In this document: positions 10,591 to 61,766 of the stretch, in pieces | Position numbering within the stretch: position 1 is the first letter of the stretch | Layout of the letters: each line of letters begins with the position of its first letter | Program-made: the position numbers and the translations under genes | NCBI GenBank assembly: GCA_026770705.1 | Contig: JANJGN010000056.1 | Span: 496,001 to 560,000 of the forward strand | Origin: Isurus oxyrinchus | Taxonomy: Eukaryota | DNA: 64,000 nt | Direction of reading: 5' to 3' | The notes under the pieces: model-generated | The model's database searches: none | Told to the model about the DNA's origin: nothing | What the model saw: only the letters and a program-made list of their open reading frames with translations

Positions 10591-10619
10591 TTTTCCAGAG
10601 AACATTTCAAGGTCTTATC

Positions 10620-12029: not shown

Positions 12030-15000
12030 ATTATTGATTAAGGGGGTTTTGGCGTCAATCACTCGCACAGCATTTATTGCCCAGACGTAGGTACCCTTGA
12101 GAATATGGTGGTGAGCTCCCTTCTTGAATCGCAGCCATAGTGCTCTTAGGGAGGGAGTTCCTGGAATTTGACACAATTACAATGATGGAACAGGGATATC
12201 TTCTCAAACAGACTGGTGAGTAGCTTGGAGGGGAACATCCAAATCGTTGAGCACCCATGAATCTACTGCCCATTATTCTTCTAGATGCTCCGGTCGTGGG
12301 TTTGGACTGTAATGTCAAAGGTGACTTCGGAAATTCAGGCAGTGGCACCTTTCAGATAGTACACACTGCTGCTATTTTTCGTCGGTTGTGGAGGGAGTCA
12401 TCGTTTATTGATGTGGTGTCAATCTACGACTGATTTGTCCCAGATGCTGTCGTGCTTCTTGGCTGTTTTGGAGTTGCACACACCCAAGCAAGTGGGGAGT
12501 ATATCATCACAGTACTATCGTCTGGCTTGTAGATGGTGGAATGGAATTGGGGAGTCGCCGCAGGATTCCATGCCTCTGAACTGCAATTGTGGACGTTCTG
12601 TTTATATGGCCAATCCAGTTCTGTTTCTGGTCAATGATAAGCATTACAATGCTGATAGTGCGACTTTCAGCGATGGTAATGCCATTGAATGTTGGCTGTC
12701 GATGGTTTGATTTTCTCTTTGGAGATATTCATTGCCTGGTACTTGTATGGTGTCAATGTCCTTTGCCACTCCTCAGCCAAAGTCTGAACATGCTGCATTT
12801 GGCCATGGACAACCTCATGATTTCAGGAGTCACGAATTGTGTTGAGCATTGTGTAATCATCAGCGAACATCCACAATTCCGACCTTAAGATGGAGAGAAG
12901 GTCATTGATGATGGAGCTAAACATCGTTGAGCCTTGGACATTACCCTGAGGAACTGATGTTCTCTCAGGAACTAAAAGGACTAGGAGCTGAGCAATCGAG
13001 ATGTACATTTAGAAAGTGTACATGGCGAAAAGCCAGAGCTAACATTTAGAAAAGAGTGGTAGCTGAGCCGGCGGTGTGGGCATTTAGTAATTCGGGCCCT
13101 AAGCAGCCAGTGTGAAGATATCAGAAACACTGTAGCTGCTGGAAAAGACGGATCACGTATGCTTTTCTGTAAGAACAGTTAAAGATTGACAATAATTGTT
13201 TTTCTTGCCAACTATGCCCCTCATGCCATGACCGAACTTGTCGTGTTTTTAATGTTCATTTGTTCAAGGAAAGCGGTTCTAGTTTTCTATTTAATGCAAC
13301 GTTAATTGGCAGTTGTTCTGGACAATCATTTTCCCGGGTGATTAGGGTGGTTAATTAGGAATCGTCAAGACAATTTTGGATTAATATCTGAGAAAAGCGA
13401 ATCACCCACATAACAGGGAGAAGCCGGCGGAGTGACTGCCGGCTGCATCTTCCTTAAGTGAGACAATAAGGAAAGGAGGGGCCAAATGCTCTGCTTCTGT
13501 GCTGTAGACCTTCTATGGTTGCATTCTACGAACGGCTTTTAAGTTAAGTAAATGATAAGAATATGCGACGAGAAGAATTACATTACAATTTTTTGCATTC
13601 AATATGCGTAGGTATACAGGAAAGGAAATTAATGGTAGGGCCATGTGTGATCAGACGTTTCTTGGCTGGGAATTTGTGCAGATACCTGGCTGAAGCATCA
13701 CTCGCTACATTGATGAGTGGATTTCAAGTCATACATATGAAAATTTTCGAGAATTATGATAACAGCCATTTGGTGGCTGTGCGTATGTGAAAGGACCGGA
13801 TAACATGAAACAGAGAGTGTCGTGAATGAGCATGTGGAGAGGAAGTAGCCTCATTAATCGTGAAAAAACAAGTATGAGCCATTTGCGTATTCAAATGAAT
13901 CGGAGGGAAATCGGATTTAAATGTACAGAATCCAATATATGGAGTCGACTCGCAGTCCGATAAATCATGGTAATGACTGATCAGATGCGCCACTGCCCGT
14001 CCTTTCACAAAACACGTGATGACCAGGCCTTCCTTGTTTTAATCATGTGCGGAAAATGGAAATCTGAGAAGCAGCTCATTGCGCAACTGTTCGATATTTG
14101 AAAGGTGCCAGACTTCGTGAAACATGTTCTGAAAAATCCCCCTATGTACTAATTGCCCCAGAATAGACGTCGTAGGAAATTTGCCAAGTTTGTCTATGTT
14201 ACATTTGTCGAGTTGTCATGATCCAGCTGGTGATGTTTGGGTCTTCTCTTGCTGATCAGAACAACTGTTCCAATGAACACAAGGCTGTCAAAACCTGGCA
14301 TCACAATTCATTTTTTCAAACTCTGCAACGCTAACAGGAGCTGTTCAGTATTATTATTATTCTTATTTATTATTATTATCACAACTTACAATTCACCACT
14401 GATTACTGTATACTGTGAATAATAGTTCACTATATTATAACAGAGCATGTTAAGTAGGAAACCTTTTTTAGTAGGATATTAAACGTTGTTACAAGCGTTA
14501 TTCTAACATGAGTTATGAGGGCATAATGTTTATGTCCGCCTGTACAGGTCAATGGGTTATCCACTGTAATTTGCATAGTTTTGCGCTCAGTTTCACAAGG
14601 TACTGCATTCCACTCTTCAGCTCCTCCCTAAACCTAGCCTGCGTCAGCGCATAAATGAATGCATTTGTGCAGCAACTGAGGTCCCCTAGCATGAATCCAA
14701 CTGACCTAAGCTCATTTGCCTCAGAATTTGACGTGATTGTTACATGCAGAGAGATAATATATATAACAGGTGTTGTCCAGAGCAATATATAGCTGCCGGT
14801 AATACTGAACAGTAAAATAATGGACTTTCTTCGGCTTTTTATTTCAGAGTCCTTGTGATGTTCTCCATTACTGCAACTATGGAGACCCCTGCGAACTTTA
14901 CTGGCTGCCAAAATACGCCTAGCTGTCAAAACATTTAGCAACAAGATTAGAATGAATGGAACACATGGGGTCAAGGTAAGGGTAATAAATTCAAGTGCGG

Positions 15001-15046
15001 CCCACTCAGCAGAAATGAAAAATGTATGTTTTAGGACACAATCGCT
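12030..15046 (-). repeat. Inverted partial duplicate (unit C): GPCR 3' half, 3' flank and downstream LINE
   Basis: The reverse complement aligns with about 35990-39070, including non-coding flank and the same LINE junction (about 12970 vs 38080). Confidence 0.8.
14549..15046 (-). pseudogene. 5'-truncated inverted GPCR copy C (ECL2 to C-terminus only)
   Basis: The minus strand reads SDCVLKHTFFISAEWAALEFITLTLTPCVPF...CCTNAFIYALTQARFREEL...WITH*. Homology stops at about 15045, with an in-frame TGA at 15053-15055. No TM1-4 or exon 1 was found upstream. Confidence 0.88.
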
Positions 15047-15759
15047 TGTGTCTCAATAACAACATCTGTGATTTGAAGGTGAAGCTTAAAATTGATTTTT
15101 TTTCTGGGTACCAAGTGCATAAAATTGCGAGAAAAGGTTGTCCATGTTGGGCAAAAAGATTTGAGTCTGTAGACTAATCTGTGTTCAGAAAAGTAAAATT
15201 ACGAATTGCCAATTACCTGACGATAAAGATCTAACTCCTAATACACCGATGTTTAAATTAATATCCTCTACAGCTTAATTCACTACAAATTGGCCAGACT
15301 CGTAAAACCCATGACTCTTAGCATTATTTGCTGGGAGCGATTGATTTCCAGGTTTTTGATCCAGTGACAGTAAATGAACGTTGATGTATCTGCAAGTCAG
15401 CTTGATGCGTGACTCAGAAAGGATTTTGTAATTAAGAGTGTTCCCATCACTCTTCTGCTGTTTCCCTTCCACGATTTTGAGGTCAAATGCACAAACGAAG
15501 GAACGTTGCTGACACCTGCCCCATGTCCAATACAGCAGCAATTAAAGCTAACAACACGGCTTAACCTGGTGAATTTCAAGCCCGGGGCTACTTGCAAGCA
15601 AAAAAGCGTATTCAGCATGAGAAAGACAGGGCTCATTGGTCCCCCTACCAAATAACGATAGCTCAGCTCTGAAGTCCTGTCACAATCACCTTTAATGGTG
15701 GTGTAAAATTCTGCACCTCACTTGCTCTCCAGCAATATCCCCATCAGCAATGACTGTGG

Positions 15760-17300
15760 AGCGCAGCACACCAGTGCATATACATGGCAGAAGAATTTGC
15801 ATCCACATTCACCCTGAAGTGACGGGTGCATGAACCATCCGGCCTCCACCTATGGATGACAAGCATCACAGATGCCAGTCTTCATACAATGTGATTCTCA
15901 GCACTCGGATTTCAGGAATGACTGAAGGAACTGGATGATGAAGAGGTTATGGGTCCATTTAGATAATGCAATAGTACGGGAGATCACTGCTCCTGAATCA
16001 GCCTTCCTATCGATGCTGGTATGGTGCATCTAAACCTTTGGCAACTATGCGAAACTTTGAGAATTTTCACAGGTATGCCTATCCACAAATAATCACGACA
16101 AATCCAACCAATCTAAGTACAGCCCCATCAGCCTACATTTAATCAAGATCAATGTGATGAAAAGTATCATAGAAAATGCTTTCAATCGCCAAATACTCGG
16201 CAGCAAACTGTTCACTGACCCTCACTTTTTGCTTCGTGCGAGCTGAACTCCTGGTTCGGACTGCCTCCAAACATGGACACAGGTGCCGTACTTATAAGAT
16301 GAGGGGAGAGTGGATGTGAACTATATCAATGCATCAGTTATCACAATGTGGTATCAAGGAGGTGTATAAGAATTGTGGTCAATAAGAATAAGGGGAAACT
16401 TCCCTACTGAGTGAACTCATACAAAGCAAAAATAATTTATTTTTTCATTTTTATTTTCTTTTGCAGGTGCATCATCTCAGCACCATGACATAACTGGACG
16501 ACAGACTGAGGGCAGTGTCCTGAGCCCACCCATATTTAGCTTCTGAATCAATTATGCTCTCTCCATTTGAAACACAGTAGGACGCTGGTGTGGTGGAGGG
16601 GGTGGGGTGTGGGAAAGTGGGGGGAGGTTATATCCGCTGAGAATTGTTAAAAGTTCCACACCATTCACGACTCAACAGATGCTGATGAAATCTGTGCCCA
16701 TGTGCATCAAGTCCTGGGCAACAGCCAGACCTGTGCTGAAGAATGATCAGTAATATTCGCCCCGCAAAATTGACAAGAAATGTCCATCTGTACCAAATGA
16801 ACATCCAACAAATTAGCCTTGACATTTACTGGCATTACCATCGCTTAAGCCCCCGTTTTCAACATCCTTGGACAAACCATTGACTGGAATCTGTGACTCG
16901 AAGGGCAGGTCAGAATCTGAAAATGTTGTGGTGAGCAACACATCCCCTGACTCTCCAAAAACTTACCTCCATCTAAAATGCACAAATCAGGAATGTGATG
17001 AGATACGCTACAACTGTCTAGATGATGTATGCTCCAGTAGAATTCAAGGATATTGACTTTACCCAGGACAAAGCTGATTGCTTGATTTGCAATCATTCCA
17101 TAAATTTAATGATTCAAGCTGTTTACCCTTAACTGAATAATTCATCTTCCTGCTTTGAAAGTTCATACGAATCATGAGCAAACATCTGAGTGAAATTATC
17201 TTATCCAAAACGAATATATCCACCGAATTAGTCGGTATGCTCAATTCTATTACTGCTTTCCTAAATACCATTTTGCAACACTTCCAGCGTGCACCATTTT
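15760..17300 (+). mobile_element. Decayed CR1/L2-group LINE RT fragment upstream of truncated GPCR copy C
   Basis: Remnants of Y.PISL (about 16115) and QGSVLSP..F (about 16505-16540). Homologous to the 38080-39070 family. Confidence 0.65.
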
Positions 17301-17946
17301 TCATATCCTTCAGTACACGTGGCACTTAAGTGACATCTCATGACATCACGCAACACATGGGCAATGAATGTCCCCTTCTGCTGACCAGCTCCCGTTCACC
17401 TCAGCAGATGAATCAATGATCATCAATGGCCGAAGTTTTAGGGAGAGAGAAGAAAAAAATGCTTTCCATCGGAGACCTTGAAGTCTGTGAGCAAGAGCGG
17501 ATCAATAGCATCAATAATGTCCGAGCTGGCAGAGTCATAAAGATAAATGCTAGATTAGGTCTTTGGGAGGTGGTCAGGGAACCAATCAGGTGCAAACATC
17601 TAAGTGAATTCGCTCCACAAACCTAACCACCACAGGTGCAGCTGTCCATTTAAGAATTGATAGGATAGACCACTGCACGTCCTTGTACAGATGAATTCCG
17701 CCTTCACATTGGGGCTTCTCTCCATCGTATTGTGTGAGACAACCATTGTCCTAAATGGGGTAGGTTTCACCTTGATTAACAAATCAAAAGTGGGCATTCA
17801 CGAGGCATTGTGGACCATTAGCTGCAGCTGATTGGTGCAGAACCATAATTTGTAACCCCAAGACCAGTCTATCCCCAAATCTGCAATTTTCATCTGGACT
17901 GTTTATGGTGATGTTTCTGATGCCAGTCAAGCATTCTACTTCAATA

Positions 17947-20140
17947 TAAAAACAGAAAAACTGCGGATGCTGGGAATCCAAAACAAAAACAAAAACAGAA
18001 TTACCTGGAAAAACTCAGCAGGTCTGGCAGCATCGGCGGAGAAGAAAAGAGTTGACTTTTAGAGTCCTTATGACCCTTTGACAGAACTTGAGTTCGAGTC
18101 CAAGAAAGAGTTGAAATATAAGCTGGTTTAAGGTGTGTGTGTGGGGGGCGGAGAGAGAGAGAGAGAGAGAGGTGGAGTGGGAGTGTGGTTGTATGGACAA
18201 ACAAGCAGTGATAGAAGCAGATCATCAAAAGATGTCAACAACAATAGTACAAAAGAACACATAGGTGTTAAAGTTAAAGATGGTGATATTATCTAAACGA
18301 ATGTGCTAATTAAGAATGGATGGTAGGGCACTCAAGGTATAGCTCTAGTTGGGGTGGGGAGAGCATAAAAGATGTAAAAAAATATATATTCTTTTCATAA
18401 TGGAAACAGCTGGGAAAAGGAAAATCTATATAATTTATTGGAAAAAAAAAGAAAAGGAAGGGGGAAACAGAAAGGGGGTGGGGATGGGGGAGGGAGCTCA
18501 CGACCTAAAGTTGTTGAATTCAATATTCAGTCCGGATGGTAGTAAAGTGCCTAGTCAGAAGATGAGGTGTTTTTCCTCCAGTTTGTGTTGGGCTTCACTG
18601 GAACAATGCAGCAAGCCAAGGAGAGACATGTGGGCAAGAGAGCAGGGTGGAGTGTTAAAATGGCAAGCGACAGGGATGTTTGGGTCATTCTTGTGGAAAG
18701 ACCGCAAGTGTTCTGCAAAGCGGTCGCCCAGTTTACGTTTGGTCTCTCCAATGTAGAGGAGACCACATTGGGAGCAACGGATGCAGTAGACTAAGTTGGG
18801 GGAAATGCAAGTGAAATGCTGCTTCACTTGAAAGGAGGGTTTGGGACCTTGGACAGTGAGAAGAGAGGAAGTGAAGGGGCAGGTGTTGCATCTTCTGCGT
18901 GGGCAAGTGGTGGTGCCATAGGAGGGGGTTGAGGAGTAGGGGGTGATGGAGGAGTGGAACATGGTGTCCCGGAGGAAGCGATCCCTACGGAATGCCGAAA
19001 GGGGGGTGAAGGGAAGATGTGTTTGGCGGTGTCATCATGCTGGAGTTGGCGGAAATGGTGGAGGATGATCCTTTGAATGCGGAGGCTGGTGGGTTGATAA
19101 GTGAGGACAAGGGGGATCCTATCATGTTTCTGGGAGGGAGGAGAAGGCGTGAGTGCAGATGTGCGGGAGATGGGCTGGACATGGTTGAGGGCCCTGTCAA
19201 CGACCGTGGGTGGAAAACCTCGGTTAAGGAAGAAGGAGGACATGTCAGATGAACTGTTTTTGAAGGTAGCATCATCGGAACAGATGCGATGGAGGCGAAG
19301 GAACTGGGAGAATGGGATGGAGTCCTTACAGGAAGCTGGGTGTGAGGAGCTGTAGTCGAGATAGCTGTGGGGTCGGTGGGTTTGTAATGGATATTGGTGG
19401 ACAGCCTATCACCAGAGATTGAGACAGAGAGCTCAAGGAAGGGAAGGGAAGTGAAAGAGATGGACGACGTGAAAATGATGGAGGGGTGGAGATTGGAAGC
19501 AAAATTAATAAATTTTTCCAAGTCCCGACGAGAACATGAAGCGGCACCGAAGTAATCATCGATGTACCAGAAAAAGAGTTGTGGAAGGGGGCCGGAGTAG
19601 GACTGGAACAAGGAATATTCCACATACCCCATAAAGAGACAGGCATAGCTGGGGCCCATGCGGGTACCCATAGCCACACCTTTTATTTGCAGGAAGTGGG
19701 AGGAGTTGAAGGAGAAATTGTTCAGCATGAGAACAAGTTCAGCCAGACGGAGGAGAGTAATGGTGGATGGGGATTGTTCGGGCCTCTGTTCAAGGAAGAA
19801 GCTAAGAGCCCTCAGACCATCCTGGTGGGGGATGGAGGTGTAGAGGGATTGGATGTCCATGGTGAAGAGGAAGCGGTTGGAGCCAGGGAACTGGAAATTG
19901 TTGATGTCACGTAAGGTGTCAGAGGAATCACGGATATAGGTGGGAAGGGACTGGACAAGGTGAGAGAGAAGGGAGTCATGATAACGAGATATGAGTTCTG
20001 TGGGGCAGGAGCAAGCTGAGACGATCGGTCTACCTGGGCAGTTCTGTTTGTGGATTTAGGGTAGGAGATTGAAGCGGGCCATCCGAGGTTGGGCGACTAT
20101 CAGGTTGGAAGCTGTGGGAGGGAGATCCCCAGAGGAGATT
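17947..20140 (-). mobile_element. Penelope-like retroelement, 5'-truncated and disabled (RT + GIY-YIG endonuclease + 3' terminal repeat region)
   Basis: RT motifs LP*IHK..GRPIVS, MDIQSLYTSIP, GVAMGTRMGPSYA and YIDD. Thumb region FLNRGFP..IPLVLTY. GIY-YIG region NLVYCIRCSQCGLLYIGETKRKLGDRFAEH, ending LIF*LGTL.PSGLN at about 18498. It has two frameshifts (about 19370 and 19000) and two stops. Confidence 0.93.
18049..18089 (-). ncRNA. Degenerate minimal type I hammerhead-ribozyme-like motif in the Penelope 3' end
   Basis: The minus strand reads AAGTT-CTGTCAA-A-GGGTC-ATAAG-GACTC-TAAAA-GTC-AACTC. This gives stem I, a CUGANGA-like box, a 5-bp stem II, a GAAA-like box and GUC, but the core is mutated. 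Confidence 0.5.
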
Positions 20141-21700: not shown

Positions 21701-22694
21701 GCAGCTTAATCTCCTTTTGAAAGAGGAAATCACTTGCTCTTTCAATCCACCATTACTTCAGTTTCCCCTCGTCCCTAAACCATGTCCTCCTGTTCCAACA
21801 GTGCATCTGCCTCAATGTCTTGAAAGCAGTGTTCATTGCCTTCCCCCAGTTTCGATCTCTCACAGGCTCGACCTCCAGCTTCCACATCGAACTCCTTCCG
21901 GAAACTGAAGCTCCCAGCCGTGGCTCTCAGGCTGTTCCCGTTTTCTAAAGCCCACTGTTGATCCTTGTGACGCATAGGAACAAACGACCTGCACCTCCGA
22001 CTGCCTTGTTGCAAACAAATACTGAGTGTACAACTAAGTCTCATTTTCATCCATATATTCGCTTTCACTTGAATGCGTTTATTGAACACAGCTCCCTCAC
22101 TTAGAACTTTCTGTGGATTGTGCGCAAAGATTGTTCACTTTATGTTTGTGATTGTCCGAGCAGTTTTTGATAATGGGATTTAGATACATTTTTGTGACTG
22201 AATGTGTTGCCCAGGCCAATTATCAGTTTATATGTTAAATGCCGCAAAGAACGGAGGGTTTTAGGACATTTCAAGGCAAACTGTTCCCTTGGCTCCACGT
22301 CTGGTGAAACACTTCTGTTTCTTCCTCTTTATTCTCTCTTCCAGGTAACTTGGTGACGTTTTTGTTCCTGTCGCGAGGAAACTATTGCATCTCTAATGTA
22401 TCATTTGCTACCTGGAGCGAATGTCAGGGTCCGAATTCTAGGCCGTTATCTCTGATCCCATATTAAAGAGGATTTGTCAGGAGAGATTTCCAGTTCTATG
22501 CGAGCACAATACTCGCATGTGGAAATTCATTTCGTTACTGTTCTTTTTTTCAAATTATCACAAAAAACTCTTTCTGCCTCACAGTTGAAATTACCCACTA
22601 TCCTTCTGTGGCTATTTGTTGCATGAAGCAAATGTCTTACACCCCATCATGTTCATAGCTACAGAAGTATATTCTTATCTAATAATATTGCTTT

Positions 22695-23259: not shown

Positions 23260-24640
23260 CAGCTCCTTCAGGCTCATGGAGAATTCAGATGACTGAGAAG
23301 CCCAATTCTGGACCTATATGTTCATCCGCCGTAGGGCTCGCTTTTGGCCCATTTTGGGTTTCTTCTGCTCCTGTGCCTCTGCCCTTCCAATTCTCTGTCG
23401 AGTCGCTGAGCTGCAAACTGGTTTTAGCCTTGCTGGACCAGATGGTGCCAGGCCGAGAGATCGGCAGCATTCTCAACCTGCTCACTGGTGTTAATGCCTC
23501 CGTGCTTTACGGCGACATTGAGCGTGCACTGCTAACTTTATATTTGTTCGCCCTTTGGTCAAGGAATGCTCAGTGGCAGATGCAGCTGCCAGTAGGTACC
23601 CCTTTCCTGAAACATGTGTCCGGCGACCGCCATACATCTGCCGCATTTATACAGAATTTTAGCTGGTATCAAAGGTATCCAGATATCACAGCCTTGCACC
23701 TGTCGACAATCCTCCATCCGCACAGTGTCTGTCGCCTGAAGGAGGCCTGTGCACCGTGTAGTTTAGCATCAGGATTCCAGTGTGCCGGGCGGACTGTTCA
23801 TATGGTGCAGGTGAGCCACAGGGCTGTTAGCAAGGGAGTATTATGACCCCATTCACTGTGACGCAGCTTCCAATCTCTGGGTTTGGCTTTTAGATTTGAG
23901 ACAACCTGTCGTGCAGCTTCCCGTGTTAACCTATTGAGGCCTGTGGAATGTTGGCATTCTCCACATGAGTCCAATGGTGTTGCAAATAAAAAAACACAAT
24001 AAAAAAAAACACCGTTTGATAGGCTTTGATCTTCCATCTGAGGGAAGCTCCATGTTTTTCTTCCAGAAGTCAGTGAGTGCAGCCTGACCAATGCCGAACT
24101 CATTTATGTCAGGTGATTTTTTATTTGCTCATTGTTAGTTCTCTTGGAGAGCATGCTGCCGAGTTAGCAAACTTCCTCACAGAACAGAGGGGTGTTTTGT
24201 TCAGAGCAGCTGTGGCTTCTTGGATCAAGTGACCAGCGGTGATTTGATACAGTTTCTCTATCTGCAGATATACTGTTAATCGAAAGTGTTCTGAGTCAGC
24301 ACGCAGCTGGATGTCTCCGTATTCTGCCCTATGAAAGCACAGTGGTCCACGAATAAGACTTCACTCAGTCGCTGTTCAGTCACCTATGTACAAGGTTTTG
24401 CTCTTGGCTCTTTGCAAACGTTGGCGTTTGTCCTGAAATGAAAATGCAAACCCATGTCAAGCTCTTCGAGTGGAGAATGGCTTCCAAGTATATGACAAAC
24501 AGAGCTGAAGCCATGAACAGCGTCTTACTTAGCGCCGCAGGTCACTTGAAAGGGGTCCACACTGACGAACCACTTTGCATCACTCTGTTTATCAGGTCAT
24601 CATCAAAAGCACAAATGACACAGATCCTCTTTTTCATCTT
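23260..24640 (-). mobile_element. Decayed RTE-clade LINE (paralog about 48490-49560)
   Basis: Minus-strand remnants of DPFQVT.G.K.G..MA..LF (about 24500-24600) and C-terminal YRSRIGLLSHL (about 23285-23320). The paralog reads SIDNMVI...SHVVHMENVDIPKAAL. Confidence 0.65.
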
Positions 24641-25754
24641 TTCAGGGGGCCTCATATTCAAGAGTGATTTGGATAGCTTATTGACGAATAATGGTTATTG
24701 GGGTCATGAGGATGTATGTGTGTGTTTTCAGGGGGCAGTGGAGGGGGCGGGTGTGTGACGCTGGTTGGAGGAGTGCAGGCAGGAAAATGGAGCTGAGGCC
24801 ACGATCAGGTAAAACCATTTTCTTTCAGAGCTGCAGCACAGACTCAAGAGCGCGAATGCCCTACTCCTGCCCTTAATTCTTGTGATGTTGGCCATGTATG
24901 AAATGCAGCCCAAATCAACAGCTGGAGGCGACGACAATTCGGGTTCATTATAATGAGTGACTCAATAGGACAATGACAATCGGCAGAAGACATTTGAGGG
25001 CCAAGGGTTCAATGTTCAACGTGGAATATTCTCCCAGCATTGTACTCTAGTTATCATACAATTTTATAGAAAAAATCGTTTTTCAATCAGCCCAAACATC
25101 TCTCTGAATGGAGTATGTGAGTGGGTGCTGTAGGATGATTGGCTGCTGCAGGAATGGATATTGAGCGTTTATGGGATCGGAATCATCTTGAACACTTTAT
25201 TTTGAAGTATTCTGGTTGAGAAAAGAAACTGCTTCTCCATACAGCTTGTGTTACACATCACGTAATTAACCAAGACAAACCCTCCACGTCCTCCGCGTGT
25301 ATTTATAACTTCCAGGTGGAAGGGCGCAAATTTCAATGCAACGCCATGGTTTGTAGGCCTAGTAACCGATGGAGTTGTCAGTGCCAGCGTAATTCATGGA
25401 ACGATCAGTGCAGCGTATGTCTTCCATCTGGGAGCTTGAAAGTCAATGACAAGGATCACACAGTGCCTTGTTGGAACATAGAATGAGACCAGAAACTCAA
25501 AACAATGGGGAACATCTGAAATTTCCCCATTAGGTCTGGAGGATCAGGAACATTGAGTTGCTAAGCTTCATTTTGATGTAAATTAGTGATGATTTTCCCC
25601 GCAACAGCGACTTGTGGTTTAATCTTTTCCTGCCCTGACCACCTCCGATAATATTTACCCGTTGATCAAAACATGCAGCCCCTTCTACTGGTTTGACCAC
25701 AGACATCAGTCCAATATTGGACGTTTCACTTTGAAGTGGTTGCTTTCACAAGGA

Positions 25755-25880
25755 GAGAGACTGACGTAACCTGTTTGTTCAATGACTGAAATTGATTTAT
25801 TTCTTCAGGGAACATGAATGAGCTAATGGGGATTTAACTGTTGTATAAATAAGAGTTTCTCTGAACGGATCATTTCATGT
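25755..25880 (+). promoter_or_regulatory. Putative core promoter of GPCR copy A
   Basis: TATAAATA at 25844-25851, CRE/bZIP-like TGACGTAA at 25762-25769 and forkhead-like TGTTTGTT at 25772-25779. The block is nearly identical to the paralog at about 50657-50782 and lies about 750 bp upstream of the ATG. Confidence 0.55.
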
Positions 25881-26590
25881 TCTCCGAAAGACTCAGTGAT
25901 TCTGCTTCAATTAGCGCTTCTCACAGCAAATAGCCTTTATTGCAATTTGTCAGATACGGGACACTTACAAACCAATTGTCGAAGTTCTGGTTGTCTAATG
26001 TACGTTTATTTTCACAAACTCAGGCTAACAATAGGAATTTCTCTTATTCTATCCATTCATTGAATGTGGGCGAAACTGGCGAGGCCAGCATTTATTGTCC
26101 ATCCCTATTTGTCCTTGAAAAGATGGTAGTGAGATGCGTTTTTGAGCTGCTGTAGTCTGTGTTATAAGGGGGAGGTCCAGTACTTTGACACAGAGGCAGT
26201 GAAGGAACGGCGATATATTTCCAAATCCGGACGGTGAGGGGTTTGGAGAGGAGCTACTGGTGGTGGCTTTCTCATGTCTATGTTACCTTTGTCTTTCTAG
26301 GTGGAAGCGGACGTGGGTTTGGATGTTTATGTACAGGGCTTCATGTCTGTAAAATGTAGCAGGTTTTCTCTCTTCCCTGTTACGAATGCTTTGGTGAGAG
26401 TTTTCCCCTTATATTCTGGGGTTAATTAATGTGGTATCTCCTTCCGAGTCTCGACAGTGATTTTACATTGTTTATTTTAAGTTTCTGATATTAATTCAAA
26501 GGAGAAGGGTATGTTTGTAAGTTCCAGCTCACATCGTTCCATTCCATCCTTTTTTACCCATCTCAGGAGGAAAGACAGCTTCTCATAAAA

Positions 26591-26660
26591 ATGGCAGAAC
26601 CTGTACTTCTCAAGATAGAAGCCATTTACTACCCGATTCTCGCAGCTGTTGGTGTACCTG
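26591..26660 (+). CDS. Coding exon 1 of GPCR copy A (GPR139/GPR142-like orphan class A receptor)
   Basis: ATG at 26591 reads MAEPVLLKIEAIYYPILAAVGVP plus one G, then a donor G|GTAAGA at 26661. The phase-1 junction with exon 2 rebuilds the TM1 motif GVPGN. A paralogous exon is at 51490. Confidence 0.9.
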
Positions 26661-27174
26661 GTAAGAGCCTAAACACAATCAGTGGACGTATAAATGAATA
26701 TTGACTTTCTTCTCAAATGGTGTTGCTGGTAACGTGAAACCGTTCCTTTTCTGTTGGAGAGTTATCAAAGTTTAGGTGTCATGTTAACTGATTTCTTACT
26801 ATTGCTTCATCTTTCATGCATCATTCTAGAGTGTTGACACCGTATTTATTCTTTGGGGAATTTCTTGAATTTGAGTGCACTCTGCAATAATTTTCATGAC
26901 CAAGTGCAGACCATCTTTAAAATTGGAGATAAAACGTATCTATGAAAATCAATGCAAGGGCAAATTCGCATTCTCCAGAATTCAGCTTGAACTATTTGAA
27001 AGTGTTTGCTCACGGTTTTCCCCTGTTTTCCAATATCGCAAGCAACAGGATCCCTGTCAGATCACGTACTTTTTAACAGCGATATTTTTACAAATCAGTG
27101 TGAAGTTACGAAATCTGGAAACTTGGCTGAATCACAATGCTGTGTGTGATTAAGACATTCCGAAGTCTTACTCA

Positions 27175-27585
27175 CTTGTATATTGATACAAATGATTTTC
27201 AACAGCCTTTGTTCACGACCACGTTGATGGAATTACTTAAAGTAAGCGTGATTTGTGCTCTTTAAGCTTCCATAGACATAATGTTAACAATGACTGGACT
27301 GTTTTATTTTGTGGATTTTAGCTGAGGTATAAATTTCGTTCAGGACACAGGGGGCTACAACAATGTTGCTCCTCGAAAAAGTGGTATTGAATCTTTTTAC
27401 GTTTTCCTCGTGAATCAATTTGACATCTTTTCTTAAAGGTTCTGCTTGTGGAAGTGCAGAATTAATTTACTGAGACATTGGAACATTAGCCGAGAACTTT
27501 GTTCTGAAGTCCTGGCGCCGGAAGCAAATCGTTAAACATCTATCTCAGCACGGAGATTTCAACTGACTGAGCCATAGGTGGCCTG
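27175..27585 (-). mobile_element. Decayed Deu-domain SINE (SacSINE1/AmnSINE1-like) in the GPCR intron (paralog about 52070-52480)
   Basis: The minus strand starts with a tRNA-like GGCTCAGT head and contains Deu-like GTGTCCTG..AATTTAT.CCTCA followed by GTCATTGT..CATT. Recognised from recalled consensus. Confidence 0.55.
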
Positions 27586-29299
27586 ATTTTGAAACAACTA
27601 CACACCCCAAGTAGTTATTTGGTTCTGAATATTCTGCTCCATTCAATTTCTCGCCCTGCACTACCTGCTGATGTAAATCAAACTTGCAAGTATATTTGAT
27701 TTGTATTGAGGATTGAAATTAGTTGGATTAAAGCATTTTCGGACTCCCCTGTCTCTTTTTGAATCTCGCATTGCTAAGTGACATGCAGGTTCTGACAAAA
27801 GAGCATAGAGGCAGAGGCAGTGGGAGCAGAAATTAACAATTTGGCCGCTTGCGCTTGTTCAACTACTCAATTATATCATGGCTGTAAAGATGCATTCAAT
27901 TCATTTCCTTGCACTATCGCATATCTCTGGACGCATTTAACATTTAGAAAATGGTTCATCGCGCTGCCTTCAACATTCCCAATGACTGAGCCTCTGCCGC
28001 TGTTGGGAGAGATAATTTCAAACATTCGCTGCTCTCTGAGTGAAGAAATTCCCCCTCATGTCTGCACCTGTTATTCTGATACTGTCTCTCATGATATTAG
28101 ACACATCAGCCAGGGGCACATCCCTCCAACATCTGTAACATCGAACCCTGTAAGAATAGTGTATGATTCAGTGAGATCATTTCTCATTTGGCAAAGCTCC
28201 AGAAAGCATAGGGTCAGTCTCGTCAATGTCACCACATTGGAATATCCCAGCTAATTCCCAGTAATTCAAGGAATTATCTTGTTAACAATCATTGTAGCAC
28301 AGCTATAACAACAGCGCAAAAACTCACGCTAAAAGGAGAATTTGGAATGCTTGTCCTGCACCACAACCATCACCATAATAATGCCACATGAAAATTGAGG
28401 AGTTGGAGATAGATTGGGTTTGGAATTGCAAACTATGGTTGTGCACATCCCTGGTCTAGCATATGGCACAAATTGCCTGATGAATGCCCACTTTTATGTT
28501 GCTGATCAGATTGAAAACTACCCCATATCGCACAAAGGTAGCGTCACACTATACGATGGAGGAACTTTCCAATGTTAAGGCCAACTACGTCTGCACAAGG
28601 AGCATGCGGTGGCCTATCCTATCATTCCTGTAATGGGCAGGTGCATATGTTGCTTGACGTTTGGTGAGGCGTGTTCATTTCGGTCTTTGCACCTTGTTGT
28701 TTCCCTGATCACCTTCCAAAGACCCAATCCAGCGGTTATATGTCTGACTCGGCCTGATCGGCCACTTGTGGTGCTACCGAACCTGTCTTGGTCATAGACG
28801 ATGACAGCACCTGCATACAATAGTTTTTGTTTCTTGCCACTCACCAAAACTTCGTTTTATGCCCCACAAGAGTGCATAAGTTAAGCGTGAGGTGCAGGTA
28901 ATTTAGGAGGGATCGGAGGAAAAACTTTTTTCCCCTGAGTTTGTTGAATGTCTCTAATGCGCTGCCTGGCAGGGTGGTAGAGACAGATTGCCTCACATCC
29001 TTTAAAAAGTAACTGGATGAGCACTTGGCACATCAATACCTTCAAGGCTATGTGTCAATTTCTGGTAAATGTAATTAAGTAGTCAGGACAGGTGTTTTGC
29101 ACATGCCAGTACAGACTCGAAGGGCTGAAGTGCCTCTTGTGCACTGTGACTCTGTGATTCTATGATTCGTCCATGGACGCTCATTCATTCATCATCTGAG
29201 GGGAACGGGAGGTGGTCAACATAAGGGAATATTCAGTGCCTGTGTTTTACATAATGCCATGAGGTTGAATATAAGTTTCCCGTGCTCTTAGTGCTCTGA

Positions 29300-31310
29300 A
29301 AAATGGTGCTCACTGAACGGAGAGGCGTGGCCAAATGGTATTTCGGAAAGCAACAATGGAATTGGGAGAAGCCTAAATTCCCGTTTTCGATAAAGTTATT
29401 TTCCTCAGGTGTTGGTTGATAGTTTAGATGAACTTTAAAATCAGTAAGAATAACTATTCGTTAGAGATAAACAGCTTGAATCATTAAAGCTAAGCATTGG
29501 TTGTCAAACAAGCAGCCTGATTTGCCGTGGATTAGTTCAATATTGTTGAATGTTATTGAAGCAGAACTCATCCAGAAAACTGTTGTTTATTCCAGTAGAT
29601 TCCTGAATTGTGCATTAAAGATGGAGTGAAGGTTTTGCAGAGTCAGGCGGGTATGTCCTCGCCACAGAATTCCCAGTCCTGACTTGCGCTTCTAGTCACA
29701 GTTTATAGTCAATGGTTTTTCCGTGGATCTTCAAAATGGAGAATTAAACGATGGTGATACCATTAAATATCTATGAGAAATTGTTGAACACTTTTGTTTC
29801 GTAGGTGGTCATTTCCTGTCGGTTGTCTGTCTAATATGACTTGTCAGTTTTCAGCAGAATCCTCGATATTGCCCAGGTCTCGGTGGACACGGGCAAGATT
29901 TCTTCAGCATCTGTTGAATCGCGAATGGTTTTGAAATTTAAACAATCATCAGCGGACACTCCTGCCACTCACTCCCCTACCATAAGACTTCCTCTGGGCA
30001 TATGTTGCAAAGAAGTTAATTGATGAAGCAGATTAAGGTGGTTTGACTCAGGACACTGCTCATAGGATCTCGTGCAGTGCTTTCATCGGGATGAGATGAT
30101 TCACCTGAGAAACAAAACAAAAAAATCTTCTTTGTGATAGGTATGACAGCAATCAATGGAGATGCTTCCCCATTAAGTTTATTGACCTGAATCCTGATAT
30201 ATCTCCTTCTTACCACAGAATGTCAAATGTTGTCTTGATGTAAATAACATCCGCTCTCCACTCCCCGCGTGAATTCAGCACTTTTGACCATGTTTGGTTT
30301 AAGGCCGAACCGAGAGTTGGAGCTCATACGAAGCAGAAAATGGTCGTCAGTGAGCAAGTTGCTCACTAGTACGTGGCGATTGAAAGCAATTACCATGACC
30401 GATTCCATCAATATGTTCATGATGAAGAATAGGGGATAAGGGGGTAATTATTGGTCCGATTTGACGAGTTTTGTTTTTGTGGATAGACCCAGCTGTGCGA
30501 CAGCTCACATTTTCGCTTAGATGCCACTGTTTTAGCTGTCCTATACCAGATTGTCTAGGAAGATTTATTCGGGAGCACTGATCACCCGGATGATTGCCGG
30601 TATCTGACAGGACCCATAGTCTCTGCATCATCCCGTTCCTTCAGTCATTCCTTTAGATGAAGTGCAGTGAATCACATTAGCTCAAAATTGGCATCTGTGA
30701 CGCTCTCATCCTCAGAAGGGGGACAGGATGATTCACCCACCCTTCATGTCAGTCTGAATATGGCGGAAAGTTCTTGAGCCATGTGTATGCACTGATGTGC
30801 TGCGCCCCACAATCATTACCGATGTGGATATTGGTGGGGTCTCCACCACCCTTGATTCGTTGCTCTGTCCAACATCATTCAAGATGGCATGAGCAGAACT
30901 TCAGAGCTAAGTTAGCGTTATTTGCTGGTTGGATCAATCAGCCCTGTCTGCATTCTGCATCCACTGCTTTGCATGCAAGTCGTCCTGTCTCGCAATTCAC
31001 CAGGTCAAAGCCCCGTTTTAAGGTATGATTGCAGCAACTCCTGATATATGACAGGTGTCGGCAAAAGTAATCCTTTCGAGCAATTCACTTCGAAAGCCTG
31101 GAAGGATACGAGCAGAAGTGGCATGGGAACACTCTTATTGCAAAATCGTTTCCAAGTCACACCCCATACTGACTCCGAGACATATCAGCGTTCCCTGAAT
31201 GCCACTGGATCAAACACCTGTAAATCCATCACTCGTAACACTGTGTGTGTAACTGCAGCACATGGACAGCAAGAAGAATAATATCTGCTCTCGGAAAAAT
31301 GCTGATCCTA
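29300..31310. mobile_element. Composite of decayed LINE fragments in the GPCR intron (paralog about 54160-56300)
   Basis: Similar to the 4880-6370 and 15760-17300 family, mostly minus strand, with a plus-strand 3' piece at about 31050-31310. Confidence 0.55.
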
Positions 31311-34300
31311 CCAATGATTCCCCAAAAAGAAAGTGCTGCATAATGCCGAATCTATGAATGTGTTTGTCACTTGATATGAAAGGACGTTCCTGTATGTTTA
31401 CTTTGTAGCACTAAACTAAGACAGACTGCAACATGCATGTTTTAGTTCAAATCCTTTCGCAGTAGTCTGGTTCCCAACTGAGGATGTATATCTTCAATTC
31501 GTTCCTGAATACCTAAATCTGTAGCCGAAACGATGGGCTGGACATTTCTCCCCAAATTGCAGCTCAAACCTACACACTCACACTCCCCATCACCACTCGC
31601 ACCCACCCCGCTTACCACCCCCACTCCCCAGCATCACCCACCCCCATCGAAAACGTTGAATCTGCACAAATATCAGATACCTGCATCGAGTATAATGGTG
31701 TCGTGTACTTAATTTCCCCAATTGCAGATGGAGAATGGGCGGGTCAACCATTCTCAAGTTACTTATTAACAGGTTATTGAGCTTGTCAGCGAACCAATCG
31801 TATGTTGTCCTGTTTGGTGTATTGCATTTGCTGTGGCTCGAATGAGAAAAATAAGTGTTATTGTGCAGCTATTGTGAGACGGGCAAAGAGCGGTAGGGAA
31901 CTCCTGCCTCCAGGAGCATGATCGAATGCAGCAGCAGATTGTGCTGGAGAAGATGCATCATCGTCATGCTTTTTTTCTCACTTTTTCGTTTCTTGCCTGA
32001 GCATTGAATGAAAAGTATTTTTCAAAAAAATGTCTGAGTATAGGCTGTTTTGAGCTTGTAGCCATAGCGACTGTCTGTTCACAGCATTACACTCTGCTGC
32101 ATGAGGTCCAGGCGTTCACTGTCGATTGGATGAGGACACCATTTTGCATCTTTCATTGCCTCTTCCCCGGAATTGGATGGAGTGACGAGTTGGAGGCCGC
32201 CTAAGGGAGGATGAGTGGGACAAGAGGGAGTAGGCCACTCATTTTGCATTTACCCAATATCACAATGCCGAAAAACGTGAAATCCAGTCTGATGCCTACT
32301 TGATGTAACGTTGCTTTATGAACGTAAATCACTTTCAGCGTTTTTAACCTGCACCGGGTGTCTTGGCCTGTCTTTCTAATGTCAGTGTTGCTACCGAGTC
32401 TGCAGAAATGTGTCATAACCAAAAACACTGTTCAGTGGATCTCACTCAGTGTTGCTTTAGCCAGAGCATTCGCAACGTCCCTAAAATGAATTTGAACTTT
32501 AGGATCTGCATTGCATACAAATGATGCCACAGATAAATGTTAATTTGTGCTTACATTACGAAGCAAACAACGCTCTTGAAGTGACAGAGTTAGGAAAGTG
32601 GCAGAAACTAAATCGCTCTGTAGTTCATCAGACGGGGGTATTTACGGAAACCACTCCAAGAGGCATATAGGTCAATGTGCATTGAACCTGCTCTATGTTT
32701 CTTTTCACAAACAGCAAATCAATAAGAGAAGCAGATTGCATTTTCAGATAGCAATTGTGCAGCCTATATAAATGTTCAATTCTCGAGTTATTTGATCAGG
32801 GGCTTATGTGGATAATATACTTGATATCTGTACACTTAATTTCACAGATAAAATGATCTATAATGGTTTGGATAATACACCGTTGAATTCGTTAGAAAAT
32901 TCTGTGGTTCATTCCTGGGGCATTTCAATGTTTAATGTAGAAGAAACTTCTAGAAACATGTGGATAATTTATTGGATATTAGTTTTGATAATTAATTTGT
33001 TCCAACATTTGCTGCTTCAGTATATAATTGTTAAAATTACTGTCTTTTTCCTATTTTTAACTGTTTCCTCAATTACAGTTCTGTCAAGTACAGGTTCAAG
33101 TGCTAATAATCTGGTTAACCATCTCTGTTTAATTCAAAAAAGCGAATTGATATTTATGACTCTGAGTGAAAATTCATGCCATTGTAAGGATATCAATACT
33201 AGATTTGTTCAGGGAATAATTTGTTTATGATAAATGAACATAAATCTAACTTACAAGCTGATACAGAAATGTAAAATTCTATTTATCTTTATCTGACTAA
33301 TACCACTTTCTTATTCCAAAGCTCATGTAAAAAATTAATGAACATCCTCAGGAATTAATATGATCCAAAATGTTAATTCAACACCCCGTTTATAGACATT
33401 GCTCCATTGCATTGATGTTTTCCCAAATACAAGTTTGCGGAAGCTACACTTTCTGTCTGCTCCAGGTTGCAAAGCCTTCAAAGCACTTAGTACTTCATTG
33501 AACTCATCCCTTCCTTGTGAGAATGTGCATTTTATATTCCTGAATTTGGGCATCCTGAGTCTAACCAGAGATTTCATAAGAAAATCTATTCTGTGCCCTT
33601 GCAAGAGCCATGAAATCCTATCCTACACCATAGGCATCAGAACCACAAACACAATTTAGGAAGCGAACAATTACTTACTTTGGATATTAATTATTAGAGT
33701 TATTTAACTTGCTTTGAAATGCAGATAATAAATAAATGAACATGTGCATGAACTTAGTAAATGTATGGCAGCAACAAATAGGTTCATTGAGATTCACTGA
33801 GAAACTCCATTCTTCAAAAATTCAACGGAGTTTTATTATTTAAACAACAGAAACGTTGATGCAGGCACTATTATCTGAGGCTCACGTCAATTTCGCTTGA
33901 TTTATAAAGCTTATTGGATTTAATCAGTAATTAGTAGAAATATTTCAGTTTAGTCTTCTGTATAGTAACAGATCATTGAATTAGATAGCTAATTCACAAA
34001 AATGTTCTTGCATTTTGAAAAATAAATATGCATTTTACCAAATATTGCTAAAATTGAAGGATGGTATGATCCGAAACAATCTAAAATGAAAATAGCTGCA
34101 ACGTATGATAATTTAACCATGCATATGTTAGAAGTTAGATCATTATCATCAAGTAATCGACACTTCATTGTTTTGCTCTTCTAATCATATATTAGACCTA
34201 AAATAATCCACCTACTCAAATCGATGGGCCCGTCATGGTCCATGTCGACTTGGAACATTTGCCCTTGGTGTCCTGCAAGTGTCAGTGTTCAGCTTCACAT

Positions 34301-36482: not shown

Positions 36483-36669
36483 CATATGCAAGAGGACTTA
36501 AAAACTGTGCCTGAAGGGAGTCACATTAGCAAAATACTTGAAGTGATGTATGCTGACTCTGGATAAAATTACATCCCAGGTGAAAATACTCTTTCATGGT
36601 GTAGTCTCAAATTGAACTCCTTTTCACTTTATTCTATAATAAATGGTGGACTTGAGGCATGATGATAAT

Positions 36670-36675
36670 AATAAA
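36670..36675 (+). terminator. Candidate polyadenylation signal of copy A
   Basis: AATAAA about 190 nt after the stop. AATAAA is at the homologous position in copy B (61955-61960) and copy C (minus strand, about 14366-14371). A second AATAAA at 36638 is specific to A. Confidence 0.4.
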
Positions 36676-50400: not shown

Positions 50401-50656
50401 AAACAGTGGGGAACATCAGAAATGTGCCCCCTACTTAGGGAGGATCAGAACCATTGTGTTGTTAAGATTCATTTTGATATAAATTAGTGACGATTTATCC
50501 CGCAACAACCCCTGGTGGTTTAATCATTTTCCGCTCTGACCATCCCCGATAATATTTATCCATTGATCGCTATCATGCAGCCCCTTCAATTGGTTTGACC
50601 ACAGACATCAGTCCAAAATTTGATGTTTCACTTTGTAGCGGTTGCTTTCACAAGGA

Positions 50657-50782
50657 GAGTGACTGACGTAACCTGTTTGTTCAATGACTGAAACTGATTT
50701 ATTTCTTCAGGGAACATGAATGAGCTAATGGGGATCTATCTGTTGTATAAATAAGAGTTTCTCTGAACGGATCATTTCATAT
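50657..50782 (+). promoter_or_regulatory. Putative core promoter of GPCR copy B
   Basis: TATAAATA at 50746-50753 and TGACGTAA at 50664-50671, with the same spacing as copy A. Confidence 0.5.
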
Positions 50783-51489
50783 TCTCCAAAAGACTCAGTG
50801 TTTCTGCTTCAGTTAGCGCTTCTCGCAGCGAATAGCGTTTGTTTCACTTTGTCAGATACGGGACATTTACAAACCCATTCTCGAAGTTATCGTTGTCTAA
50901 TGTATGTTTATTTACATACTCTCAGGCTAAAAATAATAATCTCTCTTATTCTATGCATTCATTGAATGTGGGCGACGCTGGCGAGGCCAGCATTTATTGC
51001 CTTCCCTAAATGCCCTCGAAAAGATGGTAGTGAGATGCATTTTTGAGCTGCTGTAGTCTGTGTTATAACGGGGAGGTCCAGTACATTGACGCAGAAGCAG
51101 TGAAGAAACGGCGATATCTTTCCAAATAAGGGCGGTGAGTGGTTTGGAGAGCAGCTACTAGATGGTGGCGTTCCCAAGTCTATGTTACACTTGTCTTTCT
51201 AGGGAGTAGCGGAAGTGGGTTTGGAAGTTTATGTACAGGACTTCATGTCTGTAAAATGTAGCAGCTTATCTCTCTTCCATGTTACGAATGCTTTGCTGCC
51301 AGTTTTACCCTGATATTCTGGGTTTAATTAATGTGGTATCTCCTTCCGAGTATCGACAGTGATTTTACTTTATTTATTTTATGTTTCTGAAATTAATTCA
51401 CAGGTGACGGGGGTTTGTAGTTTCCAGCTCACATCGTTCCATTCCATCCTGTTTACCCATCTCAGGAGGAAAGACAGATTCTCATAAAG

Positions 51490-51559
51490 ATGGGAGACCT
51501 GATAATTCACAAGATAAAGGCCATTTACTACCCTATTCTCGCAGCTGTTGGTGTACCAG
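51490..51559 (+). pseudogene. Coding exon 1 of GPCR copy B
   Basis: Reads MGDLIIHKIKAIYYPILAAVGVP plus one G, with donor GTAAGA at 51560. Colinear with copy A exon 1. Confidence 0.88.
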
Positions 51560-54992: not shown

Positions 54993-55104
54993 TCTCGAAA
55001 CGTCAACTCTTCTCTTCTCCGCCGATGCTGACAGATGCGCTGAGTTTTTCCAGCTAATTATGTTTTTGTTATTTATTTCCAACATCCGCAGTTTTTTTGT
55101 TTTT
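54993..55104 (+). mobile_element. 112-bp Penelope 3'-end insertion with 10-bp target-site duplication
   Basis: Reads CTCGAAACGTCAACTC...CATCCGCAGTTTTT. AAAATATAAA is duplicated at 54983-54992 and 55105-55114. The insertion is absent at the paralogous site at about 30110-30130. Confidence 0.85.
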
Positions 55105-60859: not shown

Positions 60860-61766
60860 CTAATGTTGTTGCGATTGTGATCCTTTCCAGAAGAAAGTGT
60901 GGACTTTCCCAGTGCATTACACTCTATATGATGGCCATGGCAGTGGCTGATTTCCTGTTTATTTGTACTGAAGTCATACTGAAGGAGATGCTGGGTGTTT
61001 ATTTTCCGGATTCATTCTTGACAATGAGCACGGTGTGCCATCTAACTGAGACGTTGATTTATATATTCACATCAGCCGCTGTATGGTTAACAGTGGCGTT
61101 CACCTTCGATCGTTTTGTGGTGATATCTTGTCAGGACCTGAAAAAAAATATTGTACAGAGACAACAGGCGCAGCTGTCATATCAGTAGTGAGTGTTTTGA
61201 GTTCTTTGACAAACATTCCCTGGTATTTTGCGTATGAACCTGCATATATAATTGGCAATGTATCTCGCGGTTGCTTCCTAAAACCGACATTTTTCATTTA
61301 TGCTGAATGGGCTGCATTTGATTGGTTTACCCTTACTTTGACCCCATTTGTTCCCTTCATTTTAATTTTGTTGATAAATGTTTTGACGGTGAGACGTATT
61401 TTAGCCGCCAGTAGAGTTCGCAGGGGTCTCCGCGGTTGCTGCAATGGAGAGCATCACAACGATCCAGAGATTGAAAGCCGATGAAAGTCCATCATTTTAC
61501 TGTTCAGTATAACCGGCAGCTTTATGTTGTTCTGGGCAGCTCCGCTTTTATTTTATTTTATCACCCTGCGTACAGCAATCATTTCATATTCTGGCACTAA
61601 TGAACTTGAGTCATTGGGATTCATGCTTGGGCTCCTCAGTTGCTGCACAAATACATTCATTTATGTGCTGACACAGTCTAAGTTTAGGGAGGAGCTGAAG
61701 AAAGGAATGCTCTGCCTTATGGAATGGTGCGTAAAATTAGTCAAATTACAGCTGAAAACCAATTGA
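60860..61766 (+). pseudogene. Exon 2 of GPCR copy B, disrupted (probable pseudogene)
   Basis: Acceptor CTTACAG ends at 60859. The sequence is homologous to copy A throughout. There is a 1-nt deletion in the A-run at 61141-61148 and an in-frame TGA at 61482-61484 where copies A and C have AGA. It is split over ORFs 60805..61188, 61083..61484 and 61524..61766. Confidence 0.88.

Follow-up and report, generated by a model that had tools for sequence, protein, structure and literature searches.

In this analysis, we focus on a 64,000-nucleotide stretch of the genome of the shark Isurus oxyrinchus (GenBank assembly GCA_026770705.1, contig JANJGN010000056.1, positions 496,001 to 560,000 of the forward strand; hereafter the window), which holds four copies of a G protein-coupled receptor (GPCR) gene, one of them intact (copy A) and three broken (copies B, C and D). 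The original prediction had read the locus as a birth-and-death cluster of GPR139/142-like orphan receptors with an intact, a disabled and a truncated paralog, and all three were recovered where it had placed them, A with 324 codons, B with a frameshift and a stop, and C as a 3′ half. It had missed copy D, a conserved putative promoter with a TATA box, and a duplicated, dead exon 1. We describe these features, the family to which they belong in cartilaginous fishes, and the role that such a family may play.

Gene copies and segmental duplication at the locus

Copy A is a class A (rhodopsin-like) GPCR gene. The coding part of its first exon comprises 70 nt (26591-26660), ends at a GT donor at 26661, and encodes a short N-terminus together with the first half of transmembrane helix 1 (TM1). 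The spliced product carries DRF and NAFIY, lacks an N-x-S/T sequon, and matches PF00001 with 80.6 bits, the curated cut-off being 30.5. N1.50, D2.50, R3.50, P5.50, W6.48, Y7.53 and the cysteine pair linking TM3 and extracellular loop 2 (ECL2) are present, and P6.50 and P7.50 are substituted, here as family-wide. A structure model of exon 2 (mean predicted local distance difference test 89.4), with helices where expected, forms a seven-helix bundle with helix 8. The top 50 fold-search matches of this model are class A receptors throughout, the best of them peptide receptors; its alignment with NTSR1 extends over 267 residues (Z 26.4, root-mean-square deviation 2.9).

In tblastn, copies A, B and C are matched with expectation values (E) of 0, 3e-133 and 2e-73, respectively. 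Read through its lesions, copy B is 79.6% identical to A in amino acids, with one extra codon in TM6 and the motif NTFIY. Its frameshift results from an A run that is short by one base and could, lying within a homopolymer, be an assembly error; the copy is nevertheless disabled in either case, because the stop codon lies outside the homopolymer. Copy C retains 164 open codons, with TM5 to the C-terminus kept, and is 73% identical to A and 80% to the Carcharodon protein P0002; its exon 1 and the 5′ half of its exon 2 were not found by blastn (word size 7) or by profile search. Copy D consists of a phase-1 acceptor (22343-22344) followed by three collinear frameshifted pieces, with two frameshifts and a stop. 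Its profile domain score of 13.6 compares with at most 4.9 in 10 shuffled windows, and in tblastn 57 of the 120 nearest relatives described below match it at E<0.01, with E down to 8e-6. At least 11 of its 12 best matches fall outside the subfamily of A, B and C, as judged by their absence from a 12-member list, and the cluster therefore mixes subfamilies. No exon 1 for copy D was found by profile search or tblastn. The segment that hosts it (21711-23798) has no counterpart in the unit of copy B. A possible further copy near 31700-31870 was rejected as a chance match (E 0.007, found by one of 120 queries). Among 29 further long frames in the window, none has a Pfam match above the cut-off, and Rfam gave none; these scans thus revealed no gene besides the receptor copies.

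Self-comparison of the window shows that the entire gene unit has been copied both in tandem and in inverted orientation (Table 1), the introns of A and B being 81-82% identical. The unit, comprising promoter, short exon 1, an intron of about 9 kb and long exon 2, thus multiplies by segmental duplication, and its copies die through point lesions, deletion and decay; deletions in the inverted unit took away the 5′ half of exon 2 of copy C. With duplicated units in both orientations and three of four copies dead, the description as a birth-and-death cluster is borne out. Homology of the copy C unit stops at a degraded retroelement, whose reverse transcriptase (RVT_1, E 4e-6) and GIY-YIG (E 2e-4) matches are both slightly below the curated cut-offs and which, from this pair of domains, we take to be Penelope-like. 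A repeat adjoining this element (17946-18129) is found again at 54994-55105 and, in the form of an inverted pair, at 63247-63518. Two frames, 9815-10462 (+) and 53710-54150 (+), resemble proteins of CR1-type long interspersed elements, without a Pfam match. The first of these also matches the N-terminal extension of the database protein P0061, and the model of P0061 therefore probably includes repeat sequence.

Upstream of the coding exons, a 150-nt block is more alike in the A and B units than any other window of that length and more alike even than the coding exons, with 96% identity compared with 83% on average in non-coding sequence and 94.7% at the 99th percentile of shuffled maxima; we regard it as a putative promoter. 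It is followed by a dead duplicate of coding exon 1, which has the same 70-nt length as the live exon and is its best non-self match in the window, with a local score of 69 that 300 shuffles do not approach (at most 53). Since the live exon has an acceptor of its own, the relic probably serves now as a 5′ untranslated exon; alternatively, it could be what remains of a fifth gene whose promoter was taken over by A. The word TATAAATA occurs 11 times in the window (2.3 expected; none of 100 shuffles as high): two occurrences lie in the A and B promoters, two in the duplicated piece 21057-21711 / 47827-48488, and the rest elsewhere.

Table 1. Features of the window, with positions counted from its first nucleotide
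Feature	Position	Strand	Details
Older inverted duplicate with copy C	10595..17936	-	about 70% identical to 39594-28345; internal deletions
Copy C	14549..15045	-	only the 3′ half of exon 2, from ECL2 onwards to the C-terminus
Degraded Penelope-like retroelement	18558..20055	-	reverse transcriptase and GIY-YIG pieces
Copy D	22345..22630	+	decayed; covers the 5′ third of exon 2, from the end of TM1 through TM3
Tandem duplication unit with copy A	24002..38446	+	twin at 48885-64000 with copy B; 80-83% identity
Putative promoter of copy A	25748..25897	+	TATA box 25844-25851; CRE (cAMP response element)-like 8-mer 25762-25769; TTCN3GAA / O/E-like word 25801-25812
Dead duplicate of coding exon 1	25930..25999	+	without its start codon; codon 23 is a stop; in-register GT donor 26000-26001
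Copy A, first coding exon	26567..26660	+	acceptor AG 26565-26566; ATG 26591; 23 codons plus 1 nt
Copy A, intron	26661..35577	+	phase 1; 8917 nt; GT-AG; AG acceptor 35576-35577
Copy A, second coding exon	35578..36482	+	intact; end of TM1 to C-terminus; ends in TGA
Two AATAAA signals	36638..36675	+	3′ of copy A; one at like distance 3′ of B and C
Copy B, putative promoter and dead exon-1 duplicate	50650..50901	+	TATA 50746-50753; relic 50832-50901
Copy B, first coding exon	51490..51559	+	
Copy B, second coding exon	60860..61766	+	disabled: frameshift 61141-61148, in-frame TGA 61482-61484

The family in cartilaginous fishes

A protein search with exon 2 of copy A gave 2188 matches at E<=1e-10, of which the best 120 were listed. 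All of these 120 come from sharks and batoids (15 species), with 48 from Heptranchias and 41 from Heterodontus that form 40 and 39 groups at 90% identity, so that each of these two sharks has at least 39-40 distinct paralogues; the counts are lower bounds, and the other 2068 matches may include non-chondrichthyan proteins. When ten deep-branching representatives were looked up, eight were named for sharks, skates, a stingray and Callorhinchus, and the protein of this chimaera falls inside the family. The expansion therefore covers sharks, batoids and a chimaera and is not confined to one species, in agreement with the lineage-expanded repertoire that had been proposed.

The nearest protein outside cartilaginous fishes is from a salamander (33% identity). 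A search with this protein returned 25 matches, namely 20 amphibian clusters, each named for a different species, one sturgeon protein and four elasmobranch proteins, so that the amphibian and sturgeon kin appear to represent a conserved gene seen once per species; no amniote or teleost protein was found in this word-based search of limited sensitivity. A few related genes occur in amphioxus (P0249, P0264, P0308-P0313), and two pairs among them are suggested to be neighbours.

Two trees were built, an IQ-TREE tree (LG+G4) of 52 rows (33 picked chondrichthyan proteins, three window copies and 16 others) and a FastTree tree of 193 rows (the 120 relatives, three copies, those 49 of 80 representatives that have 295-420 aa, and 21 others). 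Neither includes true GPR139 or GPR142, as the searches with the salamander and amphioxus proteins yielded nothing beyond the clade of each query (25 and 9 matches). With IQ-TREE, chondrichthyan genes are joined with the amphibian/sturgeon gene in one clade (support 100/96) apart from coelacanth, teleost and amphioxus relatives, and monophyly of the chondrichthyan set alone receives only 65/20, owing to the long-branch protein P0193. Copies A and B are sisters (100/98), and C falls with P0001 of the basking shark and P0002 of the white shark (98/94), from which it follows that the duplication giving rise to C predates that of A and B. The proteins nearest to the window copies are 74-80% identical to them. 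Both species-specific blooms and subfamilies common to sharks and skates are seen in the trees. The subfamily of A, B and C, with 15 rows in FastTree, covers sharks and a skate, and its ten measured members have a third extracellular loop (ECL3) about five residues shorter than usual; support for this short-ECL3 group is 96 (FastTree) and 99/96 (IQ-TREE).

The short N-terminus without a sequon, the DRF motif and NAFIY or NTFIY in TM7, pointed out in the original prediction, are all seen in the window copies, but they are not special to the locus. Of 124 relatives, 116 have DRF and 111 have NTCIY or NTFIY, only two of 65 with a length of 318-328 aa carry a sequon in the N-terminus, and TM7 of human GPR139 likewise lacks the proline. 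In public annotation, family genes are already present as 'probable GPR139', many distinct genes thus sharing one name, which is an annotation problem in itself; other relatives carry the automatic names GPR15-like, cephalotocin receptor, SIFamide receptor, tachykinin-like receptor 86C and vasopressin V2 receptor-like. Such unrelated names mask the size of the family in name-based counts.

Surveys of shark chemoreceptors have dealt with four known families and report small repertoires (PMC10116579; PMC11979771), and a GPCR paucity has been noted in cartilaginous fishes in a study whose size analysis excluded families of more than 100 copies (PMC8455134). A family that ranges from a chimaera to rays, and of which each of two shark genomes has at least 39-40 divergent members, does not fit this receptor-poor picture, in whichever tissue it acts. 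A published description of the expansion was not found in a search that left out most subscription papers, so that its absence from print is unproven; expanded GPCR arrays in general are well known, and an array built from a GPR139-like lineage appears undescribed.

Variation of the pocket and possible roles of the family

For 30 pocket positions, located by helix numbering anchored on conserved residues and drawn from class A pocket lists, 124 elasmobranch proteins have a mean pairwise identity of 0.425 and 20 amphibian proteins one of 0.974, whereas the inner transmembrane part (0.76 versus 0.79) and the intracellular loops (0.71 versus 0.69) hardly differ between the two groups. Pocket and inner transmembrane part differ in opposite directions in elasmobranchs and amphibians (p 5e-7 and 6e-6). 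The low pocket identity also holds inside single species (0.47 and 0.42). Pairs with an overall identity of 72-90% show it too, their pocket reaching 0.58 versus 0.98 in amphibians (1130 and 155 pairs with mean identities of 0.77 and 0.83). The 18 pocket sites that vary most spell 116 distinct strings in 120 proteins. Thus, the cytoplasmic half stays constant among the paralogues and the pocket-lining positions vary, and the amphibian orthologue shows the reverse. In terms of sequence, this is the pattern of what may be a ligand-diversified repertoire feeding one signalling pathway.

Two further sets of residues are conserved. Five cysteines on the cytoplasmic face, at copy A residues 37, 42, 113, 114 and 122 (about 35615-35875 in the window), are near-invariant, the first two occurring in 120/120 and 119/120 and the others in 119, 115 and 124 of 124 relatives; five amphibian/sturgeon proteins compared lack the two in the first loop. 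These cysteines could form a lipid attachment or metal site. In the amphibian/sturgeon orphan (P0219, P0284-P0303), K6.51, K6.55, E6.58, R7.35 and N7.39 of the pocket are near-invariant.

We consider it about evenly balanced whether the family is an independently evolved, chemosensory-type repertoire of cartilaginous fishes grown from one GPR139-like orphan GPCR, which is the explanation that we favour over the alternatives below. Its two components differ in strength: a repertoire architecture as such is very probable, and for an external chemosensory role the balance is even at best. In such a scheme, an ancestral receptor for one ligand would have become an array with a single output and many inputs, in which one G protein would serve all members (Gq/11, as the analogy of GPR139 suggests, or Gi/o), each would have a different ligand, and the family would read a diverse chemical space as an array. 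The least certain step is that external small peptides or amino-acid derivatives might be sensed in chemosensory cells of nose, gill, mouth or skin, such ligands being the best guess because the invertebrate members of the clade are peptide receptors. A bolder version, which seems to us somewhat unlikely, holds that cartilaginous fishes turned a GPR139-like peptide-receptor gene into a large and separate family of chemoreceptors, which would show sparse expression in chemosensory cells of the olfactory organ or outside the nose and would rival or exceed the V2R set. It would have been missed because its members are annotated as 'probable GPR139' and because surveys covered only the four olfactory families; if true, it would overturn the small-repertoire view of shark smell, according to which there are very few OR, TAAR and ORA genes (PMC10116579).

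Several observations weigh against a chemosensory repertoire. Extracellular loops (0.46) and non-pocket outer helices (0.49) are nearly as variable as the pocket (p 0.49 and 0.09), variability of the outer half would also be expected from relaxed constraint, the pocket was delimited without a liganded structure, and the paralogues compared are the 120 nearest to A out of 2188, a non-random set. Among the three DNA copies of the window, the ratio of non-synonymous to synonymous rates (dN/dS) is about 0.8 for the pocket, with intervals of 0.26-1.68 that span 1 in all three pairs. Since their split, A and B have both changed near neutrally in the C-terminal half (3.8 synonymous and 11.2 non-synonymous changes in A, 3.5 and 12.5 in B), and copy A itself may therefore be under relaxed constraint too. 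In the catshark, the olfactory neuron population is labelled in its entirety by Go and TRPC2, and the expression seen with V2R probes is robust (PMC10116579), so that no further family is required there. A top-50 list of genes from brain and nose contains no GPCR (PMC11979771), and GPR139 and GPR142 act inside the body (PMC7318219). Finally, GPR139 is not mentioned in the readable supplements of PMC10115646, PMC12361510, PMC13188829, PMC4362833 and PMC8455134 (files 1-12 and 19).

Some of these observations would be accounted for by mostly neutral amplification, in which a duplication-prone segment multiplies, the signalling face remains constrained, the outer half drifts, and the ligand is irrelevant, for example because the receptors are constitutively active or redundant. 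The three dead copies of four in the window, the whole-gene dN/dS of 0.64 (0.44-1.0) between A and B, the pocket intervals that include 1, and the similar variability of loops and outer helices are all in line with it. However, subfamilies common to sharks and skates (96; 99/96) imply that the diversity has been maintained over a very long period, the extracellular disulfide cysteines (122/124 and 124/124), W5.35, W6.48 and P4.60 are near-invariant, and promoter conservation extends beyond the coding exons, which leaves this explanation hardly probable. In the window, dN/dS amounts to 0.13-0.46 in the inner transmembrane part and 0.30-0.37 in the intracellular loops, with intervals below 1.

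The main rival to an external sense is a sensor array of immune or barrier tissues, in which leukocytes, mast-like cells or epithelial cells would detect microbial or damage peptides, as mammalian formyl-peptide receptors and MRGPRs do; we find it unlikely on present evidence. Both the expansion and the pocket pattern speak for it as well. Two TTCN3GAA words, which represent the STAT-site consensus, stand at 25804 and 25857 in the putative promoter of A and are retained in their B twins; yet the window contains 30 such words where 27 are expected, and the first also fits the olfactory O/E consensus with two mismatches, so that the motif does not decide between a sensory and an immune function. 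O/E-like words number 26 against 17 expected in the window, a count reached in two of 100 shuffles. Being chosen post hoc and not convincingly above chance in the window, the STAT-like, O/E-like and CRE-like words were set aside as functional evidence. Cartilaginous fishes are described as lacking MAS1 and related receptors (PMC8455134), which leaves the role open for another family, whereas the family profile puts GPR139 and the neurotensin receptor ahead of chemokine receptors.

The amphibian pocket bears on another alternative, internal or reproductive signalling, in which endogenous peptides, metabolites or pheromones would act in testis, sperm, gut endocrine cells or brain and the copies would have sub-functionalised. 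An identity of 0.974 points to one fixed, endogenous ancestral ligand; GPR139 is a brain receptor and GPR142 a receptor of pancreas and gut (PMC7318219), and in the catshark, expression of some v2r genes occurs in testis and rectal gland (PMC11979771). On the other hand, 116 distinct pocket strings in 120 proteins and frequent gene death (three of four) fit a small, fixed set of ligands poorly, and we judge this explanation quite improbable. Independently of it, the amphibian orthologue with its near-invariant pocket offers a clean target for the ancestral ligand of a clade that lacks a known vertebrate peptide ligand. With the family in hand, the question of how chemicals are discriminated by sharks becomes open to direct tests by RNA-seq and in situ methods that already exist.

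Comparison with GPR139, GPR142 and other receptor systems

A profile of 36 family and related proteins identified human GPR139 as the top solved structure (E 2e-30; next 3e-21), and a coelacanth relative also scored best with GPR139 (2e-18 versus 2e-10 for the next); when copy A alone was the query, the prolactin-releasing peptide receptor scored slightly above GPR139. Copy A aligns with human GPR139 at E 1.7e-9 and about 27% identity (by eye, 69 identical positions in about 253 residues); the GPR139 proteins of human and zebrafish, in comparison, are 70% identical (PMC7318219). Activation of GPR139 by Trp/Phe needs F3x33, H5x43, W6x48 and N7x38 (PMC5430874). The corresponding residues of copy A are Y, V, W and I, with one of the four kept; among 120 relatives, one is kept in 34, two in 58, three in 27 and all four in a single protein. 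As the aromatic-amino-acid site is not kept in copy A, aromatic-amino-acid sensing cannot be transferred to it. Given about 27% identity and one of four site residues, copy A reads as a GPR139-like orphan and not as GPR139, and the shark receptor probably belongs to a GPR139-like orphan lineage that is neither GPR139 nor GPR142. Its orphan status was rightly proposed, and the label GPR139/142-like holds for kinship with GPR139 but probably not in the sense of duplicates of GPR139 or GPR142, the lineage appearing separate and being seen as one gene in amphibians and sturgeon.

GPR139 itself, the mammalian L-Trp/L-Phe receptor (PDB 7vug, 9m42), shares with copy A a TM7 motif without proline and, in the alignment, E3.29, and with the family W6.48; it is also a two-exon gene (PMC7318219), as is copy A in its coding structure. 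It differs in being present as one copy, compared with the many copies of the shark family. Nor is it singled out by fold, where it ranks 26 in Foldseek and lies outside the top 50 by Z, the comparison confirming the receptor class alone. GPR142, the closest human relative of GPR139 with the same activating amino acids (PMC7318219), belongs to the same wider clade; the relatives found here bear the database name GPR139, not GPR142. Closer in kind are the 'Orphan 139-like' receptors (PMC5207463, Table 1) and GPR210A/B (PMC6504862), which, like the shark family, are non-mammalian orphans beside GPR139 and GPR142, and coelacanth and teleost proteins of this kind occur among the distant matches. 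In print, however, they comprise few bony-vertebrate genes, the word 'shark' being absent from PMC6504862, and in the IQ-TREE tree the shark family stands with the amphibian/sturgeon gene, apart from the coelacanth and teleost 139-like proteins used. No Ensembl identifiers of the three named 139-like subtypes that could be matched with the proteins analysed here were found in the supplement.

The family was not found to belong to OR, TAAR, V1R/ORA, V2R or T2R: PF00001 is the only match at E<=0.01, and the nearest kin are GPR139-like. Arrays of OR, TAAR, V1R/ORA, V2R and MRGPR/FPR genes are characterised by clusters, pseudogenes, blooms, a variable pocket with a constant signalling face, and a short N-terminus. 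The shark family resembles these chemoreceptor and MRGPR/FPR arrays in such general traits, but its ancestry lies in the GPR139/MIP/FMRFamide clade, GPR139 and GPR142 grouping with MIP, FMRFamide and proctolin receptors (PMC8514136; PMC12208981). In feature content, nematode Srw clusters are look-alikes in Atlas, with a score of 0.96, a lead without an alignment. Srw genes encode chemoreceptors derived from FMRFamide-type peptide receptors and represent an independent expansion, on the invertebrate side, compared with that of the shark family.

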